Positions 25,009 to 64,000 are shown, numbered from the stretch's first letter. The stretch: 64,000 bases of DNA from an uncultured Pseudobdellovibrionaceae bacterium (GCA_964360255.1 CAYHVK010000006.1:56191-120190); one strand, 5' to 3'. Notes: a model not told the origin generated them from the sequence alone. Numbers and translations: made by a program.

Positions 25009-25106
25009 CTGGTACCTGTTAAAACCTTAGACAGTAATATGATCTTTTAAGCCTAGACCTGCCTAGGCCGATAGATTTATTGGCTATAGAAGCCGGAGGT
25101 TTATCA

Positions 25107-25829
25107 ATGGAATCACTACTTAATTTTCTGGTCGATTACAAAGTCGCAGAAGTATGCATCCTGTTAACAGGATTATATGCACTAGCGCTTATTATCGATC
25201 GCTTCAAAGCACTCTACTTTGATTATGCGCTTCCGGCAGAACCATTTATGAAGCAAGTGATGAAGCTGCTTCATGATGATCGTATCGAAGAAGCTCTTAC
25301 ATTCTGCTCAGCCAATGAGAAGAAACCACTGGCTCACGTTGTAAAACGTGTTCTTGAGAGATCAGATCGCGATGAGCGCTCAATTGAGCAATCATTGAAT
25401 ATTGCGAGCTCTGAAGTGGCCCCGAAATTAGTGGCTCGTTTATCACAAGTACAAATGGTGTCGAACGTTGTAACGTTAATCGGACTTTTCGGTACGGTGG
25501 TCGGTCTTATCGTTGCCTTCAAAGCGATCAGCTTTGCTGACGTTTCACAAAAGCAAACGATTCTCGCGCAAGGTATTTCGATCGCGATGATGGCCACGGC
25601 AACAGCTCTTATGGTCGCTATTCCGACGATGTTTGCTTACACATTCTTATATGACAAGCAGACGAAGTTATTCGCAGAAATCGATGAGAACTCTCTTAAA
25701 ATCATCGAAGTTTTACGCGATCGTATTTATGTTCCGTTCCGTGCAGAGAAAGTTTATCCAACGACATTGAACGCAGATAAGCTGAACACGAACGGTCATC
25801 ACCCAGCGCCAAAAGCAAAGGTGTCATAG
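25107..25829 (+). CDS. MotA/TolQ/ExbB-family proton-channel protein (AglR-like candidate)
   Basis: ATG 25107 with GGAGG 7 nt upstream. Three TM segments. Conserved C-terminal region GLFGTVVGLIVAF...GISIAMMATATALMVAIP. Confidence 0.85.
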   Translation: MESLLNFLVDYKVAEVCILLTGLYALALIIDRFKALYFDYALPAEPFMKQVMKLLHDDRIEEALTFCSANEKKPLAHVVKRVLERSDRDERSIEQSLNIASSEVAPKLVARLSQVQMVSNVVTLIGLFGTVVGLIVAFKAISFADVSQKQTILAQGISIAMMATATALMVAIPTMFAYTFLYDKQTKLFAEIDENSLKIIEVLRDRIYVPFRAEKVYPTTLNADKLNTNGHHPAPKAKVS

Positions 25830-25830
25830 T

Positions 25831-26373
25831 ATGAGAGTCCATCGTTCAAGAAAATCAGAGGCGACGTTTGATCTCAATCTAGCGCCATTTCTTGATATTA
25901 TTGTGGTTATTATCCCGATGCTTCTTTTGAGTGTGGCGTTTGTTCAGGTGCGTATGATTGAAACCAACGTACCTCAAATCGTGGCTCAGAAAATTCAAGA
26001 GCAGAAAGATAATAAACAGCCCGAAATCAGTTTTGCTTTAAAAGCTGATATGAAAAAAGGTTATGTTTTAAGCGTACAAGAAAAAGGTAAAACGAAAGAT
26101 GTGAATATCATGCTGAAAGACGGCAAGCTGGATTTTGACGGCTTAACGTTAGCGGCGGTGCAGTTGAAAAAACAGCACACAGCGATTTTCTCTCTCGATT
26201 TTATGCCTGATAGCGCTTTACCCTATGAAAATATAGTTAAGACGATGGATGCGATCAGAAGATTACCTGCGAGCGAAGGTAAAGTCATGGTTAAAGACGA
26301 TAAAACCGGTGAGCTCTCACAAACGGATTTAATGTTTCCGGATGTGACATTCGCCAATGTGATTGAACAATAA
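25831..26373 (+). CDS. ExbD/TolR-family protein 1
   Basis: N-terminal LNLAPFLDIIVVIIPMLLL with the conserved TM Asp. 1-nt gap after the ExbB-like gene. Confidence 0.8.
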   Translation: MRVHRSRKSEATFDLNLAPFLDIIVVIIPMLLLSVAFVQVRMIETNVPQIVAQKIQEQKDNKQPEISFALKADMKKGYVLSVQEKGKTKDVNIMLKDGKLDFDGLTLAAVQLKKQHTAIFSLDFMPDSALPYENIVKTMDAIRRLPASEGKVMVKDDKTGELSQTDLMFPDVTFANVIEQ

Positions 26374-26389
26374 GCCCGAGGATTTGAAA

Positions 26390-26908
26390 ATGGCACGCAC
26401 TGGAATGAAAAGATACATGGAGAAGCGATTAACATCGGCTTTCAAAATTCAGATCACATCCATGGTGGATATGTTCGTTATCATTCTTGTGTTCTTGCTG
26501 AAGAGCTATTCAACTTCTCCAGTGAACATCAATCCAAGTAAAGATTTAACGTTGCCGGTTTCATCGGCAATGCAAGACCCTGAGGACGTATTAAAAATGA
26601 TGGTTTCAAAGCAAGGTGTGTTTGTAGAAGACAAACAAATCGTCGCTTTTGAAGATGGTCATTTTGCCGCTCGTGATATTGATTCTACGGATCCTTCTTT
26701 TATTCCGACTCTGTTTAAAGAGTTAGATGGAAAAGCAAAAGCCACGCAAGATATTGCGAAGGTCAATGATACGGTGAATTTCGACGGACGCGTTTTAGTG
26801 CAGGCCGATCGAGATATGCCGTACGCCATGCTTCAAAAAGTCATGTACACATCTATGCTCGCTGGTTACGCCAACGTGAAACTAGCTGTGGCTGCCAAAG
26901 ATTTCTAG
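26390..26908 (+). CDS. ExbD/TolR-family protein 2
   Basis: MARTGMKRY... with GAGGA SD. TM ITSMVDMFVIILVFLL with the conserved Asp. C-terminal periplasmic domain VLVQADRDMPYAMLQKVM. Confidence 0.8.
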   Translation: MARTGMKRYMEKRLTSAFKIQITSMVDMFVIILVFLLKSYSTSPVNINPSKDLTLPVSSAMQDPEDVLKMMVSKQGVFVEDKQIVAFEDGHFAARDIDSTDPSFIPTLFKELDGKAKATQDIAKVNDTVNFDGRVLVQADRDMPYAMLQKVMYTSMLAGYANVKLAVAAKDF

Positions 26909-48458: not shown

Positions 48459-48944
48459 ATGGAACGTAATTTCTTAGGCATCTTACGCGCACAGCGCTGT
48501 GCAAACGAGCGAGGTTTCTCGCTTATCGAAGCGCTTATAGGAGTTGGGATGCTTGGGAGTTTGATCACTGGGGCGATGTTCATCAGTGGTCATACATCTG
48601 GTTCTATCCAGCAGCGTGATCGAGCTATCGACGCGGCTATCATTCTACAAAATATAAGCGAGACTTTGCTTTTTACTTCCAATGCTGGTGATGGCACTTT
48701 GGCTGCGGGCGAACATAGCAAAACTTACGCAAGCAACGGGCAAGAAAGCGCAGACGGCTACTTCAAAGCGGACTGGACAATCACTCCGAACCAACCAGTC
48801 AATAATGTCATGCGAATTAATATTACTTTAAGTTGGACCGCTGTAGGTCTTGATCGATCTTCACATCTAACTTTATATCGTAGTATGGTTTTAAAAACGC
48901 GCACACTCGGTGACGAACGAGTTTATGTAGGGCCACCGCCATGA
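48459..48944 (+). CDS. prepilin-type minor pilin (PilV/GspI-like)
   Basis: Class III signal ...ANERG|FSLIEALIGVGMLGSLI with Glu at +5. Confidence 0.75.
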   Translation: MERNFLGILRAQRCANERGFSLIEALIGVGMLGSLITGAMFISGHTSGSIQQRDRAIDAAIILQNISETLLFTSNAGDGTLAAGEHSKTYASNGQESADGYFKADWTITPNQPVNNVMRINITLSWTAVGLDRSSHLTLYRSMVLKTRTLGDERVYVGPPP

Positions 48945-49942
48945 AAATAAGCAATCAGCTTGGCCTCACTCTCGGCGAACTTATTTTAGCCATGGGCATT
49001 AGCTCAATAACAATAATGGTGGCGTCTACCTTCAGCGTTAGCACCTTTCGTTCGCTGCGCACAGCAGGGCAGAGGGTCGATGTGGGAATCGACTTACTCA
49101 TGATCAATAATTTTTTTGCTGGCAAGATACCTAGTAGTGGCGGACCTAACCTTCCGTTCGGCTCTTTCATCATGATTGAAGATGATTGCAAATCTCGCCC
49201 TGGCGGCTTTCCGGATTGTGATAATTCTGATCGACTCAGTCTTGTCGAGCAAGATGGAGCGCCGACGTGCTCAGTGATCGCTTCACAACTCAATATATTA
49301 AATCTTGAGAGACCTACACCTAATACATGCTGTCTTGACGGGCGCGACCACTTGAACCGTCACATCGTGCTGACGAACGGTGCGAACTTTGCGCAGCTTT
49401 TTATAACTCGTGTGAATATCGGTGCATGCGCCATTGAAGTCGCGGCGGGCCCGCTTGCGGGTAATGATAATTTGCCACAGCCTTGGGTGAATTTACCGGC
49501 TAATTTCTGGGTCGGAGCCCAACCTGTGCTCGTTCATATCGACACGTATTGGCTCGACCGCGAAGCTTATATCTTGTCCCGTTTTCATTACACCGGTGCT
49601 GATCGCAGGGGCGGTGAGAACTTTCAAATCATTGACCGTGTTTACGATTTTCAGGTCGCCGCAGGTTACGACTTTAAACCGGCCGACGGCACTTTGACCG
49701 ACACCGGCGATGATAATGATGAGTGGCTTTACAATGCACCGAACACGGCTGAAGTTTTTAATGATGTGCCACAGAGCTTGATCCGCATGATCAGCATTGG
49801 GCTTTTGTTGGGGGCTCCGGCCCCAGATACCAACAGCGTCAGCAATACTTTATTAAACGGACCTCGTCGTGAAATTCCGAAAACGGCAGTGCGTGGACGA
49901 GCGACAAAATTTGCACTACGAAGCACGGCGGTATTTCAGTGA
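48941..49942 (+). CDS. prepilin-type minor pilin (PilW/GspJ-like)
   Basis: MKISNQLG|LTLGELILAMGISSITIMV with Glu at +5. ATGA overlap with the upstream gene. Confidence 0.7.
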   Translation: MKISNQLGLTLGELILAMGISSITIMVASTFSVSTFRSLRTAGQRVDVGIDLLMINNFFAGKIPSSGGPNLPFGSFIMIEDDCKSRPGGFPDCDNSDRLSLVEQDGAPTCSVIASQLNILNLERPTPNTCCLDGRDHLNRHIVLTNGANFAQLFITRVNIGACAIEVAAGPLAGNDNLPQPWVNLPANFWVGAQPVLVHIDTYWLDREAYILSRFHYTGADRRGGENFQIIDRVYDFQVAAGYDFKPADGTLTDTGDDNDEWLYNAPNTAEVFNDVPQSLIRMISIGLLLGAPAPDTNSVSNTLLNGPRREIPKTAVRGRATKFALRSTAVFQ

Positions 49943-52452
49943 GAAGTATAATTCAGCCTCTATCTAATTCTAGCGGTAGTTCTATAGTTATCATACTCGG
50001 ACTTCTAGCTTCATTCGCACTTGGAATAATGGCTTTTAATGACTCGTTCAACACCGGCCATGCGTCACTCATATTTTTGCAAAAACAGAAAGAAGCTTAT
50101 TACGCCGCTGAGGGTACACGAGCAGTTTCGCTCGCATTAACTGGTGATTATCTCGGTACAGATGATACGCCGACCGCTGCCGAGTTGACGGACTATTTAA
50201 AACTAAAACTTGCACCAACACTGCCACCGAAATATAAAATCGTAAACGTACAAGCCGAGATTGCAAAAGAAGAGGAAGTCATAGAAATCCCTTCGGGTCC
50301 GTATAAAGGTTTTTTGGCGCCGCAATCAAAAGTTCATATTTCTTATGAAGTGAAAACAGCTGACGATTATCAAGGCGGACGTACTTCGACTTTTATTGAC
50401 TCCACTTCAATCATTGCCCAAGTGGGCGTTTTTCAGTTTATGATTTTCGCAGACAGTACTGACACACGGTTCGTGCCCGGCCCGGCCATGACCATCAATG
50501 GACGTTTTCACACCAATGGCAACGTTTGTTTCGGCAACGCGAATGCAACGTTAGCGCTTCACAGTGTGAGCGCTTCAGGTTCTGTGCGCTACGCAAAACT
50601 TTGCAACCCTAACGAAACTGCGACTAAAAATGTCGCTGTGGCCACCGATGGTACGATGACTAACTTTGCGCCCCTTCGTATGGACAACAGTCATGGCTGT
50701 ACGAATTGTGCAGGCAGCGGTATGGATTGGGCTGAATACGCCCTTGCCACTTGGCATGGCCGTCTGACCGATTCTGCTCACGGAGTACAACCGCTCAACT
50801 TGCCTCTGCCAGATGAGTCGACGGCACAACTCGGTGTTGATGGTACAGATAGTATGTGGGCCCGAGTGAACGATCGCAATCTGCGCTTCATTGTCGATCA
50901 TAAGTTGCCAGACGAATCCGAAGCCGTTTCTAAAATGAAATTCTCAGTGCAGGCCGATATTCGTATCATCGATGGAGTTTGGTATATAAAAGATCCAGAA
51001 AATGATTTGAATTGGCCAGGCTTACCGATTTGGTCAGACCATCCGGGAACTCATTCAGCTTACGGGTTGGACGTGGGTCAACGCGAACTTCGCGGGCGCT
51101 GGAACGGTATTAATACTTGGCCAGTGGGTAGCACACCGCGGGCGTATTCTTATTATGAATTTAATTCGGCCACTGAAAGTATTAACGACGATGGTAGCGG
51201 TGTTATTTCTTACGGAACAGTTCACCGTCAAGCGGGCGGGCCTTTTCCAGAATGGAAGCCAGGTTTCTGGCTGGCCGGACCAGGTGCGACTTCGAACAAT
51301 CTCTGTCGCGACAATCCACTGGCACCAGCTTTCCCGCTGACATTGGCGGGTGGTGGGCCGGTCGGTAATACGATTTATCGGTTCAATACGGCTTTGGATT
51401 GCGGTGGAGCGGTCGCTAATCCGACATCGGCCACATTGCTCTTGAATGCAACACGATCAGGTTTTCGTGAGCTGAGTTACCAACATTTCTTTCAAGCTTC
51501 AGATCGTCAGGAGCGGGCTCGGGTTCTACCGATGAATTTCGATGCGAAAGCTTTCGAGCAAGCTTTAGCAAATAAAAACCCAGGTGAACTCGGCTCCTAT
51601 TTTGGTGCCGGAAGTTTCTTGGGCCGCGAATTCAATGGGATTCTTTACATGTCTAACAGCTGGCCGGGTTCAGATGAGGGGTATTCTCCACGCGGAATTC
51701 CTCGGCTCTTTCCGGTGCAAGGGCAAAATGAAAATCGAATGGGTGGTACAGTTTTATCGGTTCCGGTCACTTCACCCAATCAGCAGCGCGCATTGCCTCG
51801 CCAATTATGTTCAGATGACAGCGGTATGTTACCGGGGGACGCTGGTCGACGCTTCGACGGTACGGATCGCTTTCAGGTTCCACATTGCTCAGAGTACAAT
51901 AATGGGGCGAACTCTTTGGCTTACACAAACGTGATTCGAATTATGAATGGCGCGAATCTTCAACCGAGCGCGTTTCCGAAAGGTTTGAGTTTAGTTTCTA
52001 ACAATTCAGCGTACGTACTTGGCAGTTACAATATGAATTCTGATACTTCAAGCATCGACGCCACACCATGGATGGCGTCTTTGATCGCGGCCGACAACGT
52101 GACCGCAATGTCGAACGGTTGGTCAGATCATCAGAATAATTGGAGTGTTGTGAATGTGCCGTCACCCGCCGAAAGTACTGTTTACAACTCGGCGTTTTTA
52201 ACGTCGCAAACCGAAGGCTATGGTTTGCCGTACATAGAAGACTGGCGCGACTTATCTTGTCGTATGACCGGTTCGTTCGTAATGGGGTACAGCTCGGTCT
52301 ACCATCGTTCATTCACGCAGTTCGATGTGAGAGTCTACTGGCCGCCAGATCGCCTTTTACTCTTTGATCCGCACTTTCGTCGTCCAGCTAACCAACCGCC
52401 GGGCGCGCCCACGTTTTTCGTCACATCCGTCATCGACTGGAGAGCCAACTAG
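49939..52452 (+). CDS. large PilX_N-anchored pilus-associated protein (PilX/ComZ/GspK-position; candidate tip protein)
   Basis: N-terminus GSSIVIILGLLASFALGIMAF...QKEAYYAAEGTRAV (PilX N-terminal pattern, no Glu+5). 837 aa. Beta-rich region with INGRFHTNGNVCFGN. Overlaps both neighbours. Confidence 0.55.
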   Translation: MRSIIQPLSNSSGSSIVIILGLLASFALGIMAFNDSFNTGHASLIFLQKQKEAYYAAEGTRAVSLALTGDYLGTDDTPTAAELTDYLKLKLAPTLPPKYKIVNVQAEIAKEEEVIEIPSGPYKGFLAPQSKVHISYEVKTADDYQGGRTSTFIDSTSIIAQVGVFQFMIFADSTDTRFVPGPAMTINGRFHTNGNVCFGNANATLALHSVSASGSVRYAKLCNPNETATKNVAVATDGTMTNFAPLRMDNSHGCTNCAGSGMDWAEYALATWHGRLTDSAHGVQPLNLPLPDESTAQLGVDGTDSMWARVNDRNLRFIVDHKLPDESEAVSKMKFSVQADIRIIDGVWYIKDPENDLNWPGLPIWSDHPGTHSAYGLDVGQRELRGRWNGINTWPVGSTPRAYSYYEFNSATESINDDGSGVISYGTVHRQAGGPFPEWKPGFWLAGPGATSNNLCRDNPLAPAFPLTLAGGGPVGNTIYRFNTALDCGGAVANPTSATLLLNATRSGFRELSYQHFFQASDRQERARVLPMNFDAKAFEQALANKNPGELGSYFGAGSFLGREFNGILYMSNSWPGSDEGYSPRGIPRLFPVQGQNENRMGGTVLSVPVTSPNQQRALPRQLCSDDSGMLPGDAGRRFDGTDRFQVPHCSEYNNGANSLAYTNVIRIMNGANLQPSAFPKGLSLVSNNSAYVLGSYNMNSDTSSIDATPWMASLIAADNVTAMSNGWSDHQNNWSVVNVPSPAESTVYNSAFLTSQTEGYGLPYIEDWRDLSCRMTGSFVMGYSSVYHRSFTQFDVRVYWPPDRLLLFDPHFRRPANQPPGAPTFFVTSVIDWRAN

Positions 52453-52454
52453 AT

Positions 52455-52856
52455 ATGGAAAACCCTACACCTTTTCGCCAGCGTCGGCGCATCTTGCTTA
52501 TCGATCATAAACCGCAGCTTTCACTTATTTTGTACGCCCTCGCATCTGCCACCGTCTCGGCGATTTTCGTTTTTCAAGCGACGGCTCATTGGTACCGCGC
52601 CCAATGGGAAGGGTTCGAGTATCGACCGTGGTTAGTGGCTGGTACTGGTTTCGCCCTTTTAGTTCTTATCGTACTTTGTGGTTTCTATATTACTAATCGA
52701 TGTTTCGGGCCACTTTTTCAAATGCGTCGACAGATTAAGCTGGCATTGCAAGGAGAGCGGGCCAAGATTCATGTGCGTCGTGGTGATCATTTCGCTCCAT
52801 TGATGGAAGACGTAAACGCGCTATTCGATAAATTGCAAACTCAGGATAAAAAATGA
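52455..52856 (+). CDS. two-TM protein with HAMP-like cytoplasmic helix pair
   Basis: TM1 LSLILYALASATVSAIFVF. TM2 GFALLVLIVLCGFYI. Then NRCFGPLFQMRRQIKLALQGERAKIHVRRGDHFAPLMEDVNALFDKL, which resembles a HAMP domain (P-x-x-x-L ... G ... D-E-x-x-x-L...N-x-M). Confidence 0.45.
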   Translation: MENPTPFRQRRRILLIDHKPQLSLILYALASATVSAIFVFQATAHWYRAQWEGFEYRPWLVAGTGFALLVLIVLCGFYITNRCFGPLFQMRRQIKLALQGERAKIHVRRGDHFAPLMEDVNALFDKLQTQDKK

Positions 52857-53341
52857 TCCGTCAGGTTTCGCAAAAAGGTTTTACGCTTGTAGAAACCATG
52901 ATGGTTGTGGCTATCGTGGCCATCTTAGTCTCTATCGGCGGAGTCTCGATGGTTTCGGGACGTCAGGCTTACCAGTTTGCGAACGAACAGTCGAAGCTCT
53001 ACCAAGTCCTCAGCCGTGCTCGCAATATGGCTATGGGTCGCCGTGAATGTGTGAGGGTTGAAATTGTCAGTAATATTGCGAAAACAGATACTTTCACCGA
53101 TAACTTGTCCAATAGAACCTGCGCGGGTGCAGTGAATCCAACTCATATGGATATCGCCGATGTCCAATTTATGGATAAAACAAATATCGGCCGTTTTCAG
53201 CCCGGCGAACAAACCGTAATTTTTTTCAATGGGAGCGGCGGTTTAGATGCGAGCAACGTTGTTACTATTGGAATCGGTGATGATACCAATTATTCGACTT
53301 TCAAAATATTTCCGGTGCTTGGACAGATTCGCCAACAGTAA
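52853..53341 (+). CDS. prepilin-type minor pilin (GspH/FimT-like)
   Basis: VSQKG|FTLVETMMVVAIVAILVSIG with Glu at +5. GspH-like size (162 aa). Confidence 0.75.
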   Translation: MIRQVSQKGFTLVETMMVVAIVAILVSIGGVSMVSGRQAYQFANEQSKLYQVLSRARNMAMGRRECVRVEIVSNIAKTDTFTDNLSNRTCAGAVNPTHMDIADVQFMDKTNIGRFQPGEQTVIFFNGSGGLDASNVVTIGIGDDTNYSTFKIFPVLGQIRQQ

Positions 53342-53348
53342 AAAACGC

Positions 53349-54533
53349 TCAATCGAAATCTAAAACCACAGCGGTAATATCATCGTCTTGGCTTACACCA
53401 CCAGCCCTTTGATCGGACTTCGTGAACAAAGTATCTAAGAATTGTCGAGGCGAAATTAAATTCTCGTTATGAGTCTGAATTAGCATGTTATTAAACTCAC
53501 GCTCTTTCATCGGCTCGCCATTCGCCATACGGCGCTCGACAAGTCCATCTGTCAAAAGCATCAAGCGCATCCCAGTACTCGGGATAGATCCTTCACCTAC
53601 GATAAATTCTTTGTTTTCAGAACCTAAAGTCGGAGACACGGGTTCGCTAACGAAAATCAATTGATTCCACTTTATATTGGCCAGCTTGCGAGGCAAGGCG
53701 ACTGCTGGTAAATGACTGGCATTGATATAGCGAAGTTTTCGGGTTTCAAAATCAGCTTCAACTAAAAACGCACTCATTAAAAGTTGACCGTTAGCACATT
53801 TATTAATAGCTGTTGTGAGAGTTAGATAAACTTTTTCGATGTTTGCCGTATCATCTTCTTCTATCACCCCGACGGCCGCTCGTGCCGCACTCGTAATTAA
53901 AGCAGCGCCTGCACCATGCCCGGTAGCGTCTGCGATTAATGCAAAGGCTTTTGTTTTTGTGCTCCAGTGCCACCACCAGTCACCACCGCACTCAGTGGCC
54001 GTTTGATAGCGACCCGCAATGTGGAGGCCTTTGTATTGGGCCCAAGCCTGCGGGGGCAATAAATTTTCTTGTACCGAACGAGCCGTTTTAAGTTCGCTCT
54101 GCATACGGGCTTTTTCAGAAGTTTCAGATATGAGACCACGGGCCAGAAATTTCAAAATTAGATTTCCGGTGCGAATTTGATCATCATTTTTAAGTTCACG
54201 CACCGTTTGCGGCGGCAGATTGATTTCATTTACATAAGTGAAATTCGTAGCGCCGAGATCAGTTAAGTAAACTGCATTGTTTTTCATTTCAAACAGGGCG
54301 TGTTGTTTACTAATACTGACTTCGCCAATTGAAATATCGCAGCTGGGTAGTCGACCCAGAACCATGCGCTCTTTTTCTAGGGGATACTGCCGACCAATCA
54401 CATCTTGTGGCCCTGCAATGATGACTAAACAGGCCGGCGCTTTAAATAAAAGATTGTGCTTAATCTTAACGGTTACACTTTGTGTAACAAACGTCTTTTC
54501 AGAAAAATCATCATCGGAATTATTGGCAGACAT
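53349..54533 (-). CDS. FHA domain + PP2C/SpoIIE-type Ser/Thr phosphatase
   Basis: FHA: MVLGRLPSCDISIGEVSISKQHALFEMKNNAVYLTDLGATNFTYVN. PP2C/SpoIIE: GGDWWWH, ADATGHGAGAAL, LLTDGLVE, DDDITAVVLDF. Confidence 0.85.
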   Translation of the reverse strand: MSANNSDDDFSEKTFVTQSVTVKIKHNLLFKAPACLVIIAGPQDVIGRQYPLEKERMVLGRLPSCDISIGEVSISKQHALFEMKNNAVYLTDLGATNFTYVNEINLPPQTVRELKNDDQIRTGNLILKFLARGLISETSEKARMQSELKTARSVQENLLPPQAWAQYKGLHIAGRYQTATECGGDWWWHWSTKTKAFALIADATGHGAGAALITSAARAAVGVIEEDDTANIEKVYLTLTTAINKCANGQLLMSAFLVEADFETRKLRYINASHLPAVALPRKLANIKWNQLIFVSEPVSPTLGSENKEFIVGEGSIPSTGMRLMLLTDGLVERRMANGEPMKEREFNNMLIQTHNENLISPRQFLDTLFTKSDQRAGGVSQDDDITAVVLDFD

Positions 54534-55330: not shown

Positions 55331-55544
55331 TCGAATCTTTCAAAAATTGTAAAATATGTGATCAGTTTTTAGCACATTTCCCTCGAGCGTGTCCAATAGT
55401 GAGAGAATAGAAGTGTAAACCGATTTCCACCTTAAGTCTCGGGTGTTTAGGGCCGATACAAAAGATGAGATAAGTAACTGAATTTTCGAGCTAAAACATA
55501 GTACTGAAAATTCTGACACTAAAAACTTTATCAGAGGTCGCTTC

Positions 55545-56435
55545 ATGCAAAGTCAATTCTATGTTTCACACTCCGGTCATCAAATGGGTCCGTACGCGAT
55601 TGCGGATATTCTTAAGCTCGTGACAGACGGCACTTTGTCTCCGCTTGATTACGTTTATGACGACGCGAAACAGGATTGGATTCTCTTTTTAGATCATCCA
55701 GAACTCACAGATAAAGTGAAAGCTTTGAAACCTAAAGCTCCACCTGCGCCGGCGGCTTCAACGGTTGCGGCCGTGAAACAAGAAGAACATAAAGAAGAAA
55801 AGAAAGCCCACGAACATAAAGTTAAAGAAGCCACGAAGAACCTTAAAGTGCCACCAGAGCTCGCCGAGCTCATGGGCCACGAGTGGTTCGTGCTTAAAGG
55901 TGAGAATCGTTTTGGCCCGTACTCATATATAGACGTAATCAAAATGCTTCAGCAAGGCGTCGTCTTTGAATTCGATTTTGCTTGGTATCAGGGTCTCGAT
56001 GGTTGGAAGCGCATGGCAGAAATGTCAGCCTTTTCTAAAGAGAACATGAAGATCTTAAAAGAAACTGTAATGCCAGAAGTGAGCGAGGCGTTCTTTCGTC
56101 GTCGCTACAAACGCGTTGAGTACGGCGGAACAGTATTAGTGCACGACAATAAATCTGTATGGAGAGGCAAAGGCATTGAGATCAGTGAAGGCGGCGCCGG
56201 TATCATCATGGAGAATTCTATGTGCGTACCTGGTCAGCAACTTTATTTACACTTCAAACCAGGTGATGGCGTTCCGCCCTTCAACGCAATTTGCGAAATC
56301 GTGAGCAAAGGCTTTAGCGACGACGTTAAAGATCCAAAAGCGGCGATTAAATACGGTGTTAAATTTAAAACAGTGAGTCCGGAAGCGCATAAGTTCATCA
56401 CGGACTACACAAAACGAGGAAAACTTGCAGCTTAA
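55545..56435 (+). CDS. tandem GYF_2-like domains + C-terminal PilZ-like domain protein
   Basis: GYF_2-like 1: HQMGPYAIADILKLVTDGTLSPLDYVYDDAKQDWILF. GYF_2-like 2: NRFGPYSYIDVIKMLQQGVVFEFDFAWYQGLDGWKRM. PilZ-like: RRRYKR(V) then IEISEGGAGI (RxxxR ... [D/N/E]xSxxG). Confidence 0.65.
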   Translation: MQSQFYVSHSGHQMGPYAIADILKLVTDGTLSPLDYVYDDAKQDWILFLDHPELTDKVKALKPKAPPAPAASTVAAVKQEEHKEEKKAHEHKVKEATKNLKVPPELAELMGHEWFVLKGENRFGPYSYIDVIKMLQQGVVFEFDFAWYQGLDGWKRMAEMSAFSKENMKILKETVMPEVSEAFFRRRYKRVEYGGTVLVHDNKSVWRGKGIEISEGGAGIIMENSMCVPGQQLYLHFKPGDGVPPFNAICEIVSKGFSDDVKDPKAAIKYGVKFKTVSPEAHKFITDYTKRGKLAA

Positions 56436-59400
56436 TAAACTATTATTAAGAATTTTGGTACTGATGTTATTGGCTACACCTAGCCAATATCAGATGGCAT
56501 TCGCCAAAGCTAAAACTGAAAAAGAATCCGGTCTAAAGGATTTAAAGTATAAGCAAGGCGATGAAAAAGGTAATGACATCAAAGCTCTTCAAACGGAGCT
56601 TTTGATTGCGTCGACTGAAGAGAAAGCCATCCAGCAAACTGAAAAGCTTATTAAGAAGTATAAAGGCAATATTTTAGAAGCTGATCTTCAGCTTCGTTTA
56701 GCGGAACTCTATATGAGACGAGCTAAAACAGATCGTTTCTTAGAACTGCAAAGAAAATCAAACGACATGATTTCGCTCGCGCCAAAGACCATTCAAAATG
56801 CGCAAGCTAAAAAGCACGTCATCAAAGCTATCGGGATTTATGATTACCTTGAGAAGCGTTTCCCGTCTTACGAGCGTTTAGACCAAGCTATTTTTAATAA
56901 TGCTTTTGCAAGCCAACAAATTGGCGAAGATAAAAAAGCCGAGAGATTGTTCGGTCGTCTGATTCATGATTTCCCGAGCTCAATGCTGATTCCGGATGCG
57001 CAATTGGCCGTTGGTGAAATGAAGTTTCAGCGTCGTGATTTTGCTGAAGCATTAAAGCACTTCCAGGCTATTAAAGCTTACCCAGATTCAATGGTGTATG
57101 CGTACGGGCTTTATAAGTCTTCATGGACTTACTATAATATGCGTGACACTTCGACGGCTCTTAAAGAACTCGAAGCGGTTGTGAAGTACGGTAAATTCGT
57201 ACGCGAACAAGGTATCGATTCACGTCTCGATTTACGTAAAGAAGCTCTCAGCGATATGACTCTCTTTTATGAAGAGGTTTTGCCAGCTAAGAATGCGTTC
57301 AATTATTTCGAGAAGCAAGCGGGCGAAATCGATATTGCTCCGATTTTGATTAAGCTTTCTGAGCTTTATAAGCGCCATGCGCGCTTTGAAGACAACCGCA
57401 TTTTACTCTCTGAATATATCAAGCGTCTTTCTACATCCGACTACTTACCAAAAGCTTATGTAGAACTTGCTGATTCAAATGATAAACTCAAGCGCCCTAA
57501 AGAAGTGATTCAGCTGATGACAGATCTGCAAAAAATGTGTGAGCCGGGCAGTCGTTGGGTGAAAGCTCAAACGGTTAAACCTGATAGCGCATTAATGGAT
57601 CTTGTTGATGAAGATATGAAGGCGCCCTACACGGCTGATGGTATTTGCTATAAAGTCTTTAGAAAAACAACAGTTCTTTATGCTAATCGCTGGCTTAAAA
57701 ACTGGCAGAAATTCTCTGACCAAAAATCATCTGACGCCAGACTTCACGGTGATGGAGCCGAAGAGGCCTTCAAACTTCACTTATCAAAAGATGATAAGTC
57801 AGAGAACTCAAATAAAGCTCGCTACGTATTTGCCGATTTACTCTTTAAGCGCGAAAAATTCCGTGATGCGAGTGAAAACTACTCTATCACTGGCGCTCAA
57901 ACGACGGATAAAACTCTTAGGCACGATGCTCGTTATTATGCGGTTGTGGCTTTAGAAAAAGCGACAAAAGACAAGTGGAACGACAAAGACGAAGCTCTTT
58001 ATAAAAAGCTCGCTGGTGACTATCTTCGTGAGAGCGAAAAAGGTCCGTATGCTTTAGATATTCAGTTTAAAACCGCTCTTATCGCTTACGAAAAAGCTCG
58101 TTACGACGAAGCGGCGACCCAATTTAAAGTATTAGGTGAAAAGCACGCCACAGTTGATAAAGGTATAAAGTCACAAGATCTCTATCTTGATATCTTGAAC
58201 CTTAAAAAAGACTATGCTGGTTTACGTGATTACTCGTTTGCACTTCGCAATAGCACTAAAGATGCGGCTCGCAAAGAGAAGCTCACTAAAATCTACGAAG
58301 AGTCTTATTTCTTAATTGTTCAAGAACTTGAGAAAAAAGGTGGCGAGTCTGAAGCCATCGAGAAATACGAACAGTTTGCAGCGACGAACGGGCAGTCTCC
58401 GTTAGCTCAAAAGAGCTTATGGAACGCTATGCAGCTTCAATTTAAACTGGGCAACTTGGTTGGAGGCTCAAACGCTTCAATCAATTATTACAATAAATAC
58501 CCTGAAACTAAAGAGGGCCGAGATGCCTTACTTAAAGCTGCAGAAACTTATGAGGCTTTAGGTCTATTAGATAAGGCGGCTGCAACGCTCATCTTATTAG
58601 CTAAGAGTGATCTTGCAAACCAATCTAAATGGCGCTTAATGGCCGCTGATTATTATACAGTTCTTGGCGATTATAAATTGTCGAAGCCACTCTATGAAGA
58701 GCTCAAGTCAAAGCCAAATTCACAGGCGCGCTCTCTTGAGCAGCTTGAGTTTATCGCGAAGGCTGAGAATAATGTACCGGCGCGTGAGAAGCTTCTTCGT
58801 GAGATCTCAGCTCTTGGCATTCAGCCACAGGCCAGCTTAGCTCAGCTTTATTTTGTCGAGAAGGCCTATACAGCAAAAGACTTTGAATCTACATTCAATC
58901 TTTCTAAGAAGCTTGTCGGCTCAAACGATAAAGGCATTTCAAACTATGCAAAAGCTCGTGCTCGTCTCTTGCAAGCTCACGTACTTGATAAAGAATATCG
59001 TAATCAAAGCTTGAAGAGTCAGGTCGACCGAGTTCATATCGTTCTTCAGTTAAAAACTGAAAAACTCAGTAAGGCTCAGATTGCCTTCCAATCAGCCGCT
59101 AATATGGGCGACCCAACGGTGACAGTTGATGCTTTAAATGCATTATCAGATTCATATTTTCATTACGTGCAAGCTGTAAAAGAAATGCCGATTCCAAAAG
59201 GTATTCCGCCTGAAGAAGAAGCGGTTTTCAGAGGCGAACTCGCTAAGATTTCATTACCAATGGAAGAAAAATCTATTGAAGCGAAAAGCTTGGCTTTAAA
59301 GCAAGCCATTCAAATGCAAGTGCGCGATGGTAGCATCGCTCGCTTAACATCTGAAATCGATCGCATGAACCAAACGGTTCGTATGGATACTCTCATCGAG

Positions 59401-60231
59401 TTCAATGGCCCAGAAAGCCTTCTCGCTGATGAAGACGGTTTCTATGGTAAATTACCTGTGATTTCTAAAGTGAACCCGCTTTCATGTCCATCAGGTGACA
59501 AGAACTGGACGAAAGAAAATCTTCGCGGACTTATTGGTATCTTAAATAACTGTGAAACTTTAAAGAAAACTGATCGCGTAAATACAATCGCGAGACATTT
59601 ATCAGTTGAGTTCTTAAAAGAGGGCTGGGGTCCATATTACCTCAGCTTAGCAGCGGCTAATAAAGGTCTATTACCACTTTCAATTTGGTATGCTGATCTT
59701 GGTTTGCGTCGTCAACCGAATTCAAGCTTACTCGCTTATCAAAAGGGTCGCATCCAGTGGATGCTGGGCGATTACAATGCGGCAATTAAATCGATCAAAG
59801 CGGCGAGCGAATCAAATCCACGCTTCTTAGAAGCCCATTTGGCTCTCGGTCGTATTTACTATAGAGATGCAGATTTAAAGAGCGCTTCAGTACATTTTGA
59901 TCAAGTTCTAAAAATTGACCCTACAAATGCTGTAGCACTTGTAGGTCTAGCCGAACTTCGTCGCAAGAAAGCAGATAACAAAGAGGCCCTTACTCTCTTA
60001 GAAAAGGCCGTCAGCAGTTCACCCCGCTCACTCGATTACAGACTTCGCCTCGCGGATCTCTATGAAGTTGAGCAGCGCTACGAAGAGGCTTTAACAGCTT
60101 ACAAACGTATTAAGAATTTAATTAAAGAGCAAAGAACTCCGGCACAGGATTCATTTGCCAATATCGATGAGAAAATCAAAATTCTTGAAACCCAAATTGC
60201 CAAGAATTCTGAGAAAAGGACTAGCAAATGA
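56425..60231 (+). CDS. large periplasmic TPR-repeat protein (GltD/AgmU-like position and size)
   Basis: TTG start overlapping the upstream gene by 11 nt. Signal peptide LLRILVLMLLATPSQYQMAFA. TPR-like repeats throughout, canonical near the C-terminus (AYQKGRIQWMLGDYNAAIKSIKAASESNPRFLEAHLALGRIYY). 1268 aa. Confidence 0.6.
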   Translation: MQLNKLLLRILVLMLLATPSQYQMAFAKAKTEKESGLKDLKYKQGDEKGNDIKALQTELLIASTEEKAIQQTEKLIKKYKGNILEADLQLRLAELYMRRAKTDRFLELQRKSNDMISLAPKTIQNAQAKKHVIKAIGIYDYLEKRFPSYERLDQAIFNNAFASQQIGEDKKAERLFGRLIHDFPSSMLIPDAQLAVGEMKFQRRDFAEALKHFQAIKAYPDSMVYAYGLYKSSWTYYNMRDTSTALKELEAVVKYGKFVREQGIDSRLDLRKEALSDMTLFYEEVLPAKNAFNYFEKQAGEIDIAPILIKLSELYKRHARFEDNRILLSEYIKRLSTSDYLPKAYVELADSNDKLKRPKEVIQLMTDLQKMCEPGSRWVKAQTVKPDSALMDLVDEDMKAPYTADGICYKVFRKTTVLYANRWLKNWQKFSDQKSSDARLHGDGAEEAFKLHLSKDDKSENSNKARYVFADLLFKREKFRDASENYSITGAQTTDKTLRHDARYYAVVALEKATKDKWNDKDEALYKKLAGDYLRESEKGPYALDIQFKTALIAYEKARYDEAATQFKVLGEKHATVDKGIKSQDLYLDILNLKKDYAGLRDYSFALRNSTKDAARKEKLTKIYEESYFLIVQELEKKGGESEAIEKYEQFAATNGQSPLAQKSLWNAMQLQFKLGNLVGGSNASINYYNKYPETKEGRDALLKAAETYEALGLLDKAAATLILLAKSDLANQSKWRLMAADYYTVLGDYKLSKPLYEELKSKPNSQARSLEQLEFIAKAENNVPAREKLLREISALGIQPQASLAQLYFVEKAYTAKDFESTFNLSKKLVGSNDKGISNYAKARARLLQAHVLDKEYRNQSLKSQVDRVHIVLQLKTEKLSKAQIAFQSAANMGDPTVTVDALNALSDSYFHYVQAVKEMPIPKGIPPEEEAVFRGELAKISLPMEEKSIEAKSLALKQAIQMQVRDGSIARLTSEIDRMNQTVRMDTLIEFNGPESLLADEDGFYGKLPVISKVNPLSCPSGDKNWTKENLRGLIGILNNCETLKKTDRVNTIARHLSVEFLKEGWGPYYLSLAAANKGLLPLSIWYADLGLRRQPNSSLLAYQKGRIQWMLGDYNAAIKSIKAASESNPRFLEAHLALGRIYYRDADLKSASVHFDQVLKIDPTNAVALVGLAELRRKKADNKEALTLLEKAVSSSPRSLDYRLRLADLYEVEQRYEEALTAYKRIKNLIKEQRTPAQDSFANIDEKIKILETQIAKNSEKRTSK

Positions 60232-60482
60232 AATTATTAATTTTCGTTCTACTATCAGTCTTTGTTATGCGTAGCGCTTTTGCAGCTGAACCGGCGAAGA
60301 AGAATGTGCAGTATCGTAAAACGCAAGAAGTGAGTTTTGAAGCTTCAGATGTCGAAGGGGCGATCCGCACTCCGGATGGCGCTTACGTGAATCCGAAGAA
60401 GAGCGTTAAGTTCATGCCTTTATACAAAATTGATCAGCAATTCGACCGAGACATTAAAGATTCAGTGGAGTACTTAAAATGA
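60228..60482 (+). CDS. small secreted protein (GltF position)
   Basis: 84 aa. Signal peptide MKLLIFVLLSVFVMRSAFA. ATGA overlaps on both sides. Confidence 0.5.
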   Translation: MKLLIFVLLSVFVMRSAFAAEPAKKNVQYRKTQEVSFEASDVEGAIRTPDGAYVNPKKSVKFMPLYKIDQQFDRDIKDSVEYLK

Positions 60483-62017
60483 ATTCAACAGCAAACAAGA
60501 TTATGCAGCTTGAATTAGAGCATCACTACAAGAATAAGTTTTTGGGTCGCCACGCTATATCTCCGAAGGGAAATGTAATGGTTCTCGGCTCGTCGCCGAC
60601 GGCCCACGTGCGTCTTTTAGGCTCTGATGTTGGCGAAGTTCACGCCTACCTCGAGTATGCTGATGGACAGTGGTATATTATCGATGCCGGCAGTGAAAAA
60701 GGCACGTGGGTGCAAAAACATCCCATCGTGCGCGAAATGATCGAATCAGAAATGACCGTGGCCATCGGTGGTCACCAATTGAAGTTCCATAAACGTGCAG
60801 TAGAGACCTCGCTTTTTAATGCTAAGAAACTTGAAAAAAGTGAACCTGTGACTAAGACAGGTACAACTCTCTATCACCAAATGATTATTAAAAAACACAA
60901 TGTGACTTATAAAACTGAACTCGCGCCGATGACTCAGTTCTTCACATTCGTCGTGGGCGATAAGGCTCATCAGTTTTCGCCTCCAAAAGGCGAGGGCGAA
61001 GTTTTAGAAAATAAAATCGGTGATTTTACGTTTATTCAACGTTTAGTGCGCTCGAATACCGCTGAAATGACAGTTGGTAACTATGTCCACGAACTTATGC
61101 ACAGTGATGTGCGTCGTCCGCTGATTACGGCGATTGGTTTTATGACTTTAGCTCTTGTTGTTTTCTTAGCTATGCCATCAAAGCCTCAAGAAGAGCTTGT
61201 GACTCCTGAACTCGATCAGAACAAGTTCACTCGTATGATTTTAGATGCAAAATTAATGAAGCAAAAGCGCACTGAAGCTCGCGAGCGTCAGAAGCAGCTA
61301 GAGCGTGCACCATCAAGTGGTCAGGGTGTAGCTTCGACGGAAAAAACTCCTTCAATGACGACTCCGACTCCTACAAAAGGAGCCACTCCGAAAGTGATCT
61401 CGAAACTTAAGACTCAGGGTCTCACGGCGCTTTTAAGTAAAATCTCAAGTCGTGCAACGGCTTCGGGTTTGAAAATCAATTCGCAAGGTGTGACAGCTGA
61501 TTCGCAACAAGGTCTCGGCCGTGCGACGGCGGTGGCCGCAGTAGGTAGTCTTCAAGGTGTTGGCGGTAAAGCTGGCGCTGAAGGCACGCATCGTATTGGC
61601 GGCATCGGCACGATCGGCAAAGGCGGCGGCACTTCAATGGTGGCGGGCGTTGGCGGTTTAGCAATTGGTGCAGCCGGTAGCGCATCAGTGGGCGTGCTTG
61701 AAGAAGAAACTGAAATCGAAGGCGGTCTTGATAAAGACGTGATCGCACGCGTGATTCAATCACAGCTCGGTGAAATTCGTTATTGTTACGAGCGCCAGCT
61801 CAGTGCTGAGCCAGAGCTATACGGTAAAGTTATTTTGCGTTTCTCGATTGATGCCAACGGCATCGTGAACTCGCAAAAAATTGGTTTAACGACATTAAAA
61901 AGCGCCATGGTTGAGGGATGTATTCTGCGGCGTGTGACGAACTGGAAGTTTCCAAAGCCGAAAGGCGGAACAACCGTGCTCGTCTCATATCCGTTTTTAT
62001 TTAAGAGTACTAACTAA
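60479..62017 (+). CDS. FHA + TM + low-complexity linker + TonB-C/AgmX-type C-terminal domain protein (GltG-like)
   Basis: FHA-like VMVLGSSPTAHVRLLGSDVGEVHAYLEYADGQWYIIDAGSEKGTWV. TM LITAIGFMTLALVVFLAM. Pro/Thr then Gly/Ala-rich linker. C-terminal GGLDKDVIARVIQSQLGEIRYCYERQL...GKVILRFSIDANG...WKFPKPKGG. Confidence 0.65.
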   Translation: MNSTANKIMQLELEHHYKNKFLGRHAISPKGNVMVLGSSPTAHVRLLGSDVGEVHAYLEYADGQWYIIDAGSEKGTWVQKHPIVREMIESEMTVAIGGHQLKFHKRAVETSLFNAKKLEKSEPVTKTGTTLYHQMIIKKHNVTYKTELAPMTQFFTFVVGDKAHQFSPPKGEGEVLENKIGDFTFIQRLVRSNTAEMTVGNYVHELMHSDVRRPLITAIGFMTLALVVFLAMPSKPQEELVTPELDQNKFTRMILDAKLMKQKRTEARERQKQLERAPSSGQGVASTEKTPSMTTPTPTKGATPKVISKLKTQGLTALLSKISSRATASGLKINSQGVTADSQQGLGRATAVAAVGSLQGVGGKAGAEGTHRIGGIGTIGKGGGTSMVAGVGGLAIGAAGSASVGVLEEETEIEGGLDKDVIARVIQSQLGEIRYCYERQLSAEPELYGKVILRFSIDANGIVNSQKIGLTTLKSAMVEGCILRRVTNWKFPKPKGGTTVLVSYPFLFKSTN

Positions 62018-62028
62018 GGGAGGGGACT

Positions 62029-62892
62029 ATGCGTCTTCTTAACAGAACCTCGATCGTAGCAGCATTGGTGTTGTTTGTAGCCACTTCTGGCTTCGCGCAA
62101 TCGAAACAATATCAGAGAAAAAAACCAGCTGAGGCTCCAGCCGCCGCAGCACCAGGTGCACCTGCAACTGCTCCATCGAAAGATGGCAAAGCGGCCCCAG
62201 CCGCGAAAGCCACTCCTGAAGTGCCAGCTCAGCCAACTGGCGACAAGCTTGATATTTCAGAACTTGAGCAAAAATACTGGGCACCGAAAGATACAGATTT
62301 TAGCGTGGTTCAAAACAGAACCTACACTAAAGCCGGTAAACTTGCGGCCAGCTTTATGTATGGCCCTATCGTGAACGACACGTTCAGCTCGGGTATGAAC
62401 GCCGGCTTACTTTTGAACTATTATAAGGATGAGCGTTTTGGTTTCCAGGCGCATTACATCTCTTCTGATCTTTCAAACAGTGATGCGACTAAAAAGTTCT
62501 TTAAACTCTCGGGCGGTGCAACAGCGCCGGATTTCAACAGAGTTAAAGACTATTACGGTCTTGGTTTCAACTTTGTTCCGTTCTACGCGAAAATGAGTGT
62601 GATGGGGCAAAAAATTATCTATTTCGATATGCAAATCACACCAACAATTGGCATGACGAAGTATGAGCAACAACAAGAAAACGGCGGAGGCAAAAGCGAG
62701 AACAGCTTCTCTTACGGTCTTGATGTGACTCAGTACTTCTTCTTCTCAAAAAGCTTAGCCGTCAGATTCGATTTACAGAATCGTTGGTATAAACAAGACG
62801 TTGTGGCCTACAAATCACCATTCGCAAAAGTGCGCTCTGGTGAGACTGAGAACACAACTATGTTCTTGTTCGGTTTAACGTACTTTCACTAA
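62029..62892 (+). CDS. outer-membrane beta-barrel protein (GltA/B/H-like, myxobacterial OMP type)
   Basis: Signal peptide ...LFVATSGFA. Pro/Ala-rich spacer. DISELEQKYWAPKDTDFSVVQNRTYTKAGKLAAS followed by an alternating-strand barrel. C-terminal FLFGLTYFH. Confidence 0.6.
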   Translation: MRLLNRTSIVAALVLFVATSGFAQSKQYQRKKPAEAPAAAAPGAPATAPSKDGKAAPAAKATPEVPAQPTGDKLDISELEQKYWAPKDTDFSVVQNRTYTKAGKLAASFMYGPIVNDTFSSGMNAGLLLNYYKDERFGFQAHYISSDLSNSDATKKFFKLSGGATAPDFNRVKDYYGLGFNFVPFYAKMSVMGQKIIYFDMQITPTIGMTKYEQQQENGGGKSENSFSYGLDVTQYFFFSKSLAVRFDLQNRWYKQDVVAYKSPFAKVRSGETENTTMFLFGLTYFH

Positions 62893-62906
62893 TTAGGGGA
62901 TACCTT

Positions 62907-64000
62907 GTGAAAAAGTTTAATTTATCAGCACTCAGTCTTCTACTGGTTCTGGCATTTAGCCAGCCAGCAGCGGCTGCCGGTTGGGATTGGGAGTCTTTGA
63001 AAAAAGCCGCTTCTGAAGCTACTGCCGAAGCTGAAAAGAAAGTCGAAGAACTTGTCAGTTTAGCTCGTGCAAAATGGGCTGAATGGAATAGCGGTGGTGC
63101 AAATCCAGCTGAACAACAACGCAAAACTGCGTCGGATTCGGCTCCAGTGCCTGCTGCTGAAAAAGTGGCGCCAATTATTCCAGCTGCTGGCGAAACTGTG
63201 AATGTCACAACACAAAAAGATCGCGCCGATTTTGAACGCTTAATTGAAGCTTCAAAAAAATCTGTGGCTGAGAAATCAGCTGTACAGGTGAGTGTGCCTG
63301 GTCGTGCGGCTGACAAAAGCCTGTTAACCACAAAATCGGGAGTACCAAAGTTTGATCTCACACGCTCAAAAATCGCTGTCGAAAAGATTCCACGTCTTGA
63401 TGTGGGTTTAGAGAAAAGCATTTCTAAGAATGATCTGATTTCCACTGATATTATAGTGGGCTTTAATCCGCTTGAAAAAGCAAAAGCGCTTTCATCACCA
63501 GGTTTCATCAGTAAATCTGAGCTGAATAAAGCTCTTAAGATGAAAATCACAAAAGTTGATAAATGGATGGGGCCAGACCGTGAAAAGTTAGGTATCGGCG
63601 AAATCGTAACTCAAGAAAAAGTAGATAAAGTGAATGTGGATATGAATCCACTTAAGACTTTAGATGCTGAGAAGCCATTAGCTAAAGTGACAGAGAATGA
63701 TTTGAAAATGCTCGGTGCTTTACAAGTGAATAAAAAAGGTGATCGTTGCCATATCGTCAGCGGCCTTTTTCATGATCTTTCAAAAGATCCGGCACACATC
63801 GAAGAAGCCAACTTTAACCTCGGTCTATGCGCTCACAACATGGGCCTTCATTCAGAGGCGGTTCAGCGACTTCTTAAAGTGGTGAAAACAGAAAATCCTG
63901 AATACACTCCAGATGCGATTGCCAGCTTAGTTGAAGATCTTCCTCGTGAGTTTGACACTCAAGTGGCTTCGGCAATTAAGGCTGTGAATAATAAGTCGTT
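62907..64000 (+). CDS. secreted TPR-like protein, N-terminal 364 codons (runs off the right edge; GltI/GltC position)
   Basis: GTG 62907 after AGGGGA. Hand translation has no stop to base 64000. Signal peptide (M)KKFNLSALSLLLVLAFSQPAAAAG. TPR-like EEANFNLGLCAHNMGLHSEAVQRLLKVV. Absent from the ORF track because it is incomplete. Confidence 0.6.
   Translation, partial: MKKFNLSALSLLLVLAFSQPAAAAGWDWESLKKAASEATAEAEKKVEELVSLARAKWAEWNSGGANPAEQQRKTASDSAPVPAAEKVAPIIPAAGETVNVTTQKDRADFERLIEASKKSVAEKSAVQVSVPGRAADKSLLTTKSGVPKFDLTRSKIAVEKIPRLDVGLEKSISKNDLISTDIIVGFNPLEKAKALSSPGFISKSELNKALKMKITKVDKWMGPDREKLGIGEIVTQEKVDKVNVDMNPLKTLDAEKPLAKVTENDLKMLGALQVNKKGDRCHIVSGLFHDLSKDPAHIEEANFNLGLCAHNMGLHSEAVQRLLKVVKTENPEYTPDAIASLVEDLPREFDTQVASAIKAVNNKS

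Follow-up and report, generated by a model that had tools for sequence, protein, structure and literature searches.

The DNA analyzed here, referred to as the window, is a 64,000-nt stretch from an uncultured Pseudobdellovibrionaceae bacterium (GCA_964360255.1 CAYHVK010000006.1:56191-120190), the end of which carries a putative gliding-motility operon headed by a gene for a GYF-PilZ protein. Inspection of positions 55545-64000 reveals six co-directional open reading frames (ORFs), each overlapping the next by 4-11 nt or separated from it by 11-14 nt, so that the six linked genes described in an initial annotation of this DNA, with gaps or overlaps of ≤15 nt, were all found in place. In order, they encode a GYF_2-GYF_2-PilZ protein, a fusion of GltD and GltE, a GltF/CglF protein, a GltG protein, an outer membrane (OM) barrel of the myxobacterial type and a GltC-like protein. 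These genes, the region preceding them and a more distant set of motor genes are listed below.

55331..55544 (+): intergenic region of 214 nt between a divergent HAD-hydrolase gene and the GYF-PilZ gene
55545..56435 (+): gene 1, GYF_2-GYF_2-PilZ protein, 296 aa, assigned with Pfam
56425..60231 (+): gene 2, secreted tetratricopeptide repeat (TPR) protein, an in-frame GltD-GltE fusion, 1268 aa, TTG start, 11-nt overlap with gene 1
60228..60482 (+): gene 3, GltF/CglF-like small secreted protein, 84 aa, 4-nt overlap with gene 2
60479..62017 (+): gene 4, GltG-like protein, 512 aa, 4-nt overlap with gene 3
62029..62892 (+): gene 5, OM beta-barrel of the GltA/GltB/GltH type, 287 aa, 11-nt gap after gene 4
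62907..64000 (+): gene 6, GltC-like secreted TPR protein, N-terminal part, continuing past the end of the window
25080..26908 (+): AglR/AglQ/AglS-type motor, a MotA/TolQ-like gene and two ExbD/TolR-like genes, with TolQ/ExbB and TolR matches

The 214-nt gap that separates the 296-aa gene from the divergent HAD-hydrolase gene identifies the former as the first gene of the operon, and the intergenic region 55331..55544 probably contains the operon promoter and 5' end. The sequence AGAGG lies 7 nt 5' of the ATG of the GYF-PilZ gene. Scans for promoters and terminators gave signals no higher than the shuffled expectation, an Rfam search that covered the window and four related loci returned no riboswitch, neither GEMM nor any other class, and a 68-aa minus-strand ORF within the intergenic region matched no family. 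At the other end of the operon, the most likely start of gene 6 is the GTG at 62907, which has an AGGGGA ribosome-binding site on its 5' side and follows gene 5 after a gap of 14 nt.

The domain composition of the first gene product is clear from profile searches. GYF_2 (Pfam PF14237) was detected twice, at 58.1 bits against a cutoff of 25.8, and PilZ (Pfam PF07238) was detected at residues 185-289 with 42.5 bits against a cutoff of 22.5, so the GYF_2-GYF_2-PilZ architecture proposed by the initial annotation is genuine. An AlphaFold2 model built on 23 homologs (mean pLDDT of 79) places small alpha/beta modules of the GYF type at residues 1-60 and 112-175, a disordered, charged linker at residues 65-87 and a beta-barrel corresponding to PilZ at residues ∼190-277, followed by a C-terminal helix. 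When this barrel was compared with the PDB using Foldseek, the best match was YcgR (5y6g, 1.8e-5), followed by MotI/DgrA (5vx6), MapZ (5xly) and Alg44 (4rt0); these are c-di-GMP-bound PilZ domains, matched with TM(target) values of 0.6-0.7, and the six-stranded barrel fold was recovered. The structural match of the GYF module to the NMR structure of the GltJ GYF domain (7z3c) was weaker (9.5e-3, rmsd of 2.9 over 63 columns). A sequence profile of the family searched against the PDB gave this same GltJ/AgmX GYF domain as its sole match, with an E value of 6.9e-4.

The motifs RRRYKR and EISEGGAG, which had been quoted from the sequence at the outset, are both present in gene 1, and their key residues are invariant in an alignment of 23 sequences (A1). 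Arg-185, Arg-186, Arg-187 and Arg-190 are conserved throughout this alignment, with the RxxxR element reading R186-R187-Y-K-R190, and RxxxR was found in 119 of 120 homologs. Within the second PilZ motif, Ser-214 and Gly-217 are invariant. The first position is occupied by Glu-212, as opposed to the canonical Asp or Asn of (D/N)xSxxG. ExSxGG is present in 78 of 79 loci, and ExSxxG in 108 of 120 homologs of the Bd3100/window type, whereas SxSxxG is found in 117 of 120 paralogs of the Bd1482 type (both Bdellovibrio bacteriovorus proteins are considered below). The first residue of the motif is thus subfamily-specific and non-canonical, being Glu in the Bd3100/window type and Ser in the Bd1482 type. 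The linker between the two GYF modules contains KPKAPP (window residues 62-67), in which Lys-62 and Pro-63 are invariant and Pro-67 is near-invariant in alignment A1.

The closest protein match to the gene 1 product, at 86% identity, is encoded on a short Logan contig, and the closest GTDB species genome reaches 60% identity; among the species representatives covered, there seems to be no genome close to that of the source organism. At related loci L084/L085 (P0227), which have a Bd3100-type neighborhood, the protein is just 204 aa long with a single weak GYF module, so the first GYF module can be lost in orthologs. The neighborhood there comprises genes for a response regulator, the PilZ protein, a 330-aa protein, a phn transporter, an HAD protein and HrpB.

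The five genes that follow gene 1 were identified by comparison with family models and with related loci. The product of gene 2 has a signal peptide and many TPR family matches. No GltD or GltE model of NCBIfam was matched, and the size, position, signal peptide and TPR content of the protein fit this assignment. Residues 26-988 correspond in alignment to GltD-like ORFs that stand alone in loci L004 and L012, and residues 1021-1265 to the GltE-like lipoprotein of the same two loci, likewise encoded separately, except for its lipobox. Among the 35 loci that carry both parts, GltD and GltE are fused in the window only, the other 34 keeping two ORFs. A paralogous cluster in L087 also has one single TPR protein, of 1208 aa. 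Gene 3, the position of which is kept in more than 30 loci, matches the NCBIfam model gliding_CglF (equivalent to GltF) at 4.6e-13 and 49 bits, relative to an equivalog cutoff of 90.

The gene 4 product comprises a cytoplasmic FHA domain (6.4e-9), one transmembrane segment, a low-complexity periplasmic linker and a C-terminal domain of the AgmX/PglI type, which is TonB_C-like and scores 109 bits in the myxo_SS_tail model against a cutoff of 40. The protein matches the NCBIfam GltG model at 3.5e-57 and 194 bits; this is below the equivalog cutoff of 650, and the protein is accordingly described as a GltG homolog and not as an equivalog. Gene 5 scores 64.6 bits in TIGR04565 (OMP_myx_plus) against a cutoff of 60 and is assigned by this similarity to the GltA/GltB/GltH family of barrels as a whole. 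The visible part of the gene 6 product starts with a signal peptide. Its full-length ortholog in L004 (846 aa) matches NCBIfam gliding_GltC at 1.2e-30 and 107 bits, with a cutoff of 450, and the L087 counterpart does so at 5.4e-36. On account of the signal peptide and the GltC match of the L004 ortholog, gene 6 is regarded as GltC-like and not as GltI.

Taken together, the GltF, GltG, AgmX C-terminal domain, myxobacterial barrel and GltC matches bear out the view that this is a Glt-type cluster and not a Tol/TonB system. The initial annotation had further proposed that the genes follow the Myxococcus xanthus order gltD-(E)-F-G-H-I. Of this proposal, the identification of the last two genes as GltH and GltI was rejected, the first of them being a barrel of the GltA/B/H family and the second having a GltC match. 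In current models, GltI figures as a cytoplasmic partner of the GltG FHA and GltJ GYF domains, and B. bacteriovorus has been reported to be without GltH, GltI, GltJ and GltK (Luciano 2011). Neither GltI, GltJ nor GltK was found in the cluster or in related loci, and matches to the GltJ model were to shared domains only.

The GYF-PilZ family comprises 377 clusters at 90% identity, all of which have both Pfam domains, with 148 representatives at 50% identity (E < 1e-30). A genome search gave 121 matches among GTDB species genomes. Neighborhoods were taken from the best 80 of these 121, neighboring genes were mapped by tblastn, and the count was restricted to the 71 species-level loci for which 2.5 kb or more of downstream DNA was available. 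Agl motor and/or glt genes lie beside the GYF-PilZ gene in 37 of the 71 loci, and in a further 27 the only such neighbor is a CglD/MIDAS-like adhesin gene, encoding a lipoprotein of 325-350 aa with a weak match to the models for the Bdellovibrio MIDAS adhesin and CglD. The adjacency is therefore not unique to this genome. Its conservation, which the initial annotation had put forward for testing across Bdellovibrionota and Myxococcota, is evident in the former phylum; the best 80 loci all belong to Bdellovibrionota, save a few evidently mislabeled metagenome-assembled genomes (MAGs), and no Myxococcota locus was present among these best 80 of 121 genome matches.

Five arrangements were distinguished, and these follow clades when the PilZ proteins are ordered by neighbor joining. 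The order motor-PilZ-D-E-F-G-barrel-C is that of the closest relatives, and PilZ-D-E-F-G-barrel-C is the window type; PilZ-motor-D-E-F-G-barrel-C and PilZ-MIDAS-(motor)-D-E-F-(G)-barrel-C were also seen, and PilZ-MIDAS alone is characteristic of the genus Bdellovibrio. Because the linkage is kept through repeated rearrangement, the GYF-PilZ gene has stayed with gliding-associated genes. In the PilZ-MIDAS-D-E-F-barrel-C clade, represented by L023, L025 and L064, no GltG homolog was detected between GltF and the barrel, which makes the GltG FHA domain unlikely as an obligatory partner of the GYF-PilZ protein.

The family member of B. bacteriovorus HD100 is CAE80862/Q6MIQ1, located at ∼3.009 Mb of BX842601. 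It is identified as Bd3100 by its location, 79.5% of the way along the chromosome, by its vWA/MIDAS neighbor and by the inclusion of Bd3100 among listed pilZ genes. The B. bacteriovorus copies recovered in the family genome search are all of the Bd3100 type, and similarity assigns the window gene as the ortholog of Bd3100 and a paralog of the Bd1482 type. Bd3100, which in that listing is down-regulated when cells leave attack phase, is directly upstream of the vWA/MIDAS gene bd3099. Together with bd1480, bd3099 served as a “gliding gene” reporter in a 2022 study of cGAMP (cyclic GMP-AMP), both being surface-induced and reduced in non-gliding mutants; the bd3099 transcript is up on surfaces, is down in delta-bd0367 and S214D, and depends on cGAMP synthesis by Bd0367.

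The gliding operon Bd1473-Bd1483 has a PilZ gene, Bd1482, at its 5' end, and Hobley et al. 2012 (PMC3271064) proposed this gene as a candidate gliding receptor. The statement in the initial annotation that neither a receptor nor such a placement had been described is thus superseded, and the core receptor idea amounts to a broadened rediscovery of that published suggestion. According to published annotations, Bd1483 is a MIDAS lipoprotein, Bd1481 is aglR and bd1480 is aglQ, and transposon insertions in Bd1481 and Bd1483 impair biofilm predation. A Bdellovibrio sp. MAG recovered in a MotA-based search has the order MIDAS-PilZ-aglR-aglQ-aglS-glt, the same as the published Bd1483-Bd1482-Bd1481-Bd1480, and the protein at the Bd1482 position in this MAG, which stands in here for the HD100 Bd1482 sequence, is a 186-aa GYF_2 plus PilZ protein with 27% identity (E 2e-26) to the window protein over the GYF2-PilZ region. 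The Bd1482-type subfamily comprises 274 clusters. As judged from genome position, and for Bd1482 from gene order only, Bd3100 and Bd1482 each head a transcription unit containing one of the two “gliding genes” used as reporters in 2022 and lie immediately upstream of that gene. Literature searches returned nothing on Bd1482 beyond the 2012 suggestion and nothing on GYF-PilZ fusions. To that suggestion, the present analysis adds the GltJ-like GYF modules in a lineage reported to be without GltJ, the deep conservation of linkage, the non-canonical PilZ motif and the proline-rich tail of AglR.

A conserved PPxPxxK(A/S)x tail, set at a constant distance from the C terminus, marks the AglR-like proteins of these operons. 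Comparison of the C termini encoded in the window (25080-25829), in L001-L032 and L087, and by P0287-P0406 revealed that, of 116 AglR-like proteins, 101 have a “PP” among their final 16 residues and at no other place; in 73, its distance from the end is ∼9 residues. The motor set of the window is 60% identical to that of the closest relatives, L001-L005, in which it immediately precedes the PilZ gene, and a motor adjoins the GYF-PilZ/glt genes in 26 related loci. The genes at 25080..26908 are probably, on this comparison, the partner of the window glt cluster. Given that the motor is next to the PilZ gene in L001-L005 but 28 kb off in the window, a rearrangement has split the motor from the machine genes. 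The AglR tail and the KPKAPP linker of the GYF-PilZ protein are both possible GYF ligands.

A working model can be assembled around the observed gene content, domain identities, motif conservation and conserved gene linkage. The reading to which we incline, by a modest degree, is that of an Agl-Glt-type machine operon headed by a cyclic-dinucleotide adaptor of the GYF-PilZ type that docks on a component of the machine. The operon would supply the periplasmic and OM parts of the Agl-Glt (“adventurous gliding”) trans-envelope machine in a member of the Bdellovibrionales not previously represented, and the gene 1 product would be a soluble cytoplasmic adaptor. We infer that the RRRxxR and ExSxGG motifs, both invariant, allow the C-terminal PilZ barrel of this adaptor to bind a cyclic dinucleotide and that the two GltJ-like GYF modules dock the adaptor on a short proline-rich motif of a machine component. 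A precedent for such docking is the binding of an AglZ proline-rich sequence by the GltJ GYF domain (Attia et al. 2024, PMC11135422). Docking would most plausibly take place on the conserved PPxPxxK tail at the cytoplasmic C terminus of the MotA/TolQ-like AglR, although the identification of this tail as the target is tentative. YcgR and MotI are PilZ proteins that act on MotA, and because AglR is a MotA/TolQ homolog, the motor is favored as the target; the adaptor would be comparable to these two proteins. The nucleotide level would then set engagement of the motor or its assembly with the Glt complex, and the effect of the adaptor could be activating or inhibiting.

Several observations weigh against this model. 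The motor genes of the window are 28 kb upstream of the PilZ-glt operon, and the counts of the AglR tail lack a control set of unlinked MotA paralogs. The presence of Glu or Ser in place of Asp or Asn in the second PilZ motif makes ligand affinity and specificity uncertain, although, speculatively, it also leaves room for an altered ligand specificity. Gliding needs the 3',3'-cGAMP output of Bd0367 and not c-di-GMP (Lowry 2022), by which the c-di-GMP messenger assumed in the initial annotation is outdated. A canonical c-di-GMP receptor is, as a consequence, no obvious fit to gliding. Moreover, we know of no PilZ domain that binds cGAMP. B. bacteriovorus has four paralogous agl/glt sets (“expanded core complexes”) with differing expression, so that a gliding role for the window set is unproven. 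Finally, the ortholog in the genus Bdellovibrio is not beside glt genes, and 7 of the 71 loci are without any gliding neighbor, neither agl/glt nor MIDAS. Overall, the interpretation given in the initial annotation is partly supported.

The differing expression of the four sets bears directly on a rival explanation, in which the cluster is a Glt/Nfs-like paralog for prey attachment, invasion or transport of a surface polymer and the GYF-PilZ protein regulates that process. One of the expanded core complexes, Bd0412-0420, is induced in predation and not on surfaces, all Glt NCBIfam matches obtained here are below their equivalog cutoffs, and GltH, GltI, GltJ and GltK are absent. The explanation is nevertheless considered unlikely, since GltF, GltC and the barrel of the myxobacterial type count among the “group A” or expanded-complex genes, which have been linked to gliders (Luciano 2011), and the neighbors of the two HD100 GYF-PilZ genes, bd3099 and bd1480, are surface-induced and reduced in non-gliding mutants. 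Ancestral synteny or operon hitch-hiking could also account for the adjacency to glt genes, with the GYF-PilZ protein acting as a general cyclic-dinucleotide adaptor that is not functionally coupled to the machine; this is rather improbable, even though the genus Bdellovibrio ortholog without glt neighbors and the seven loci without gliding neighbors speak for it. An HAD-hydrolase gene is also near the PilZ gene in most loci, with or without glt genes following, which suggests a stable chromosomal anchor at which glt and motor genes come and go. However, at least five rearrangements have left the GYF-PilZ gene co-directional in every case with a motor, glt or CglD-like gene no more than ∼100 nt away; the independent Bd1482-type paralog has the same linkage; and what the GYF modules resemble most closely is the GYF domain of a protein involved in gliding.

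That the downstream genes form an ordinary Tol-Pal or TonB nutrient-uptake system is the least credible of the alternatives and was discarded. Gene 2 scores just above the YbgF/CpoB cutoff (93.6 versus 90.1 bits, summed over four stretches), and there are weak TonB_C, TolQ and TolR matches. Against this, gene 2 is five times the length of YbgF and the match is repeat-driven, no TolA, TolB, Pal or TonB-dependent receptor was found encoded in the cluster, and the GltF, GltG, AgmX C-terminal domain, OMP_myx_plus and GltC matches are specific. A bolder form of the adaptor model is that the GYF-PilZ family is the missing receptor for the signal by which Bd0367 (a Hypr-GGDEF enzyme) switches gliding on, with a PilZ domain that would bind 3',3'-cGAMP and GYF modules that would replace the GltJ GYF domain on the AglR tail. 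To our knowledge, 3',3'-cGAMP is undocumented as a ligand for a PilZ domain, and we regard this form of the model as a long shot.

Other genes of the window were inspected alongside the operon. A 494-aa protein (31409-32893, +) encoded after a histidine-kinase gene (29487-31412, +) has a GGDEF domain (TIGR00254, 8e-30) with the active site reading RVEVDQF and an intact RxxD I-site (RLND); this degenerate GGDEF protein could, as judged from its sequence, be a c-di-GMP receptor like CdgA of B. bacteriovorus. Between the motor genes and the operon are also an RHS-repeat protein with an RHS-associated core domain (44034-47864, +), a run of genes that includes a protein with a prepilin N-methylation motif (48459-53341, +) and an FHA-PP2C (SpoIIE-type) phosphatase (53349-54533, −). 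None of these three is conserved beside the operon in related loci, and for this reason the FHA-PP2C gene was not counted in the system.

Bdellovibrio uses gliding to explore surfaces and to exit prey that is exhausted, and this movement depends on the nucleotide output of one GGDEF enzyme. We are aware of no receptor that has been demonstrated for this nucleotide control. The present analysis narrows the search for such a receptor to one protein family, with two paralogs in B. bacteriovorus, and to a candidate docking motif. If the model is true, it would show how a lineage without GltJ couples the cytoplasm to the Agl-Glt machine and would extend PilZ control from flagellar stators to their gliding homologs.

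The closest known systems include two proteins of B. bacteriovorus. Bd1482 of HD100 (PMC3271064) is likewise a PilZ-domain gene heading an agl/glt operon in Bdellovibrionota, but the Bd1482 type, as represented by the MAG copy, differs in having one GYF module, ∼186 aa, an SxSxxG motif and a preceding MIDAS gene. Bd3100 (CAE80862/Q6MIQ1) shares the GYF-GYF-PilZ architecture, the motifs and the HAD-anchored neighborhood. By contrast with the window gene, to which it is ∼37% identical, Bd3100 is followed only by the MIDAS/vWA gene bd3099 and no glt genes. GltJ of M. xanthus (AgmX; PMC11135422, 7z3c) has a bacterial-type GYF domain like those of the window protein, in its case where the Agl-Glt machine faces the cytoplasm. 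GltJ is membrane-bound, its periplasmic end is TonB_C-like, and MglA-GTP is sensed by its zinc ribbon (a ZnR-linker-GYF switch); the window protein, by contrast, is soluble, has two GYF modules and carries PilZ instead of the zinc-ribbon switch.

Among PilZ proteins, PlpA, PixA and PixB of M. xanthus are known to affect gliding, but they act on reversal frequency or polarity and are encoded outside agl/glt operons, and the paper describing them mentions no GYF domain (Kuzmich et al. 2021, PMC8316039). YcgR of E. coli and MotI/DgrA of B. subtilis, the best structural matches to the PilZ barrel, are receptors that act on the MotA-family proton channel. They carry an N-terminal YcgR_N or second PilZ-like domain where the window protein has GYF modules, and on flagella they serve as a brake or clutch, whereas the window protein might either activate or inhibit its target. 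The Glt cluster is a further example of a known machine, and the GYF-PilZ adaptor is an uncharacterized variant of the PilZ motility regulators.

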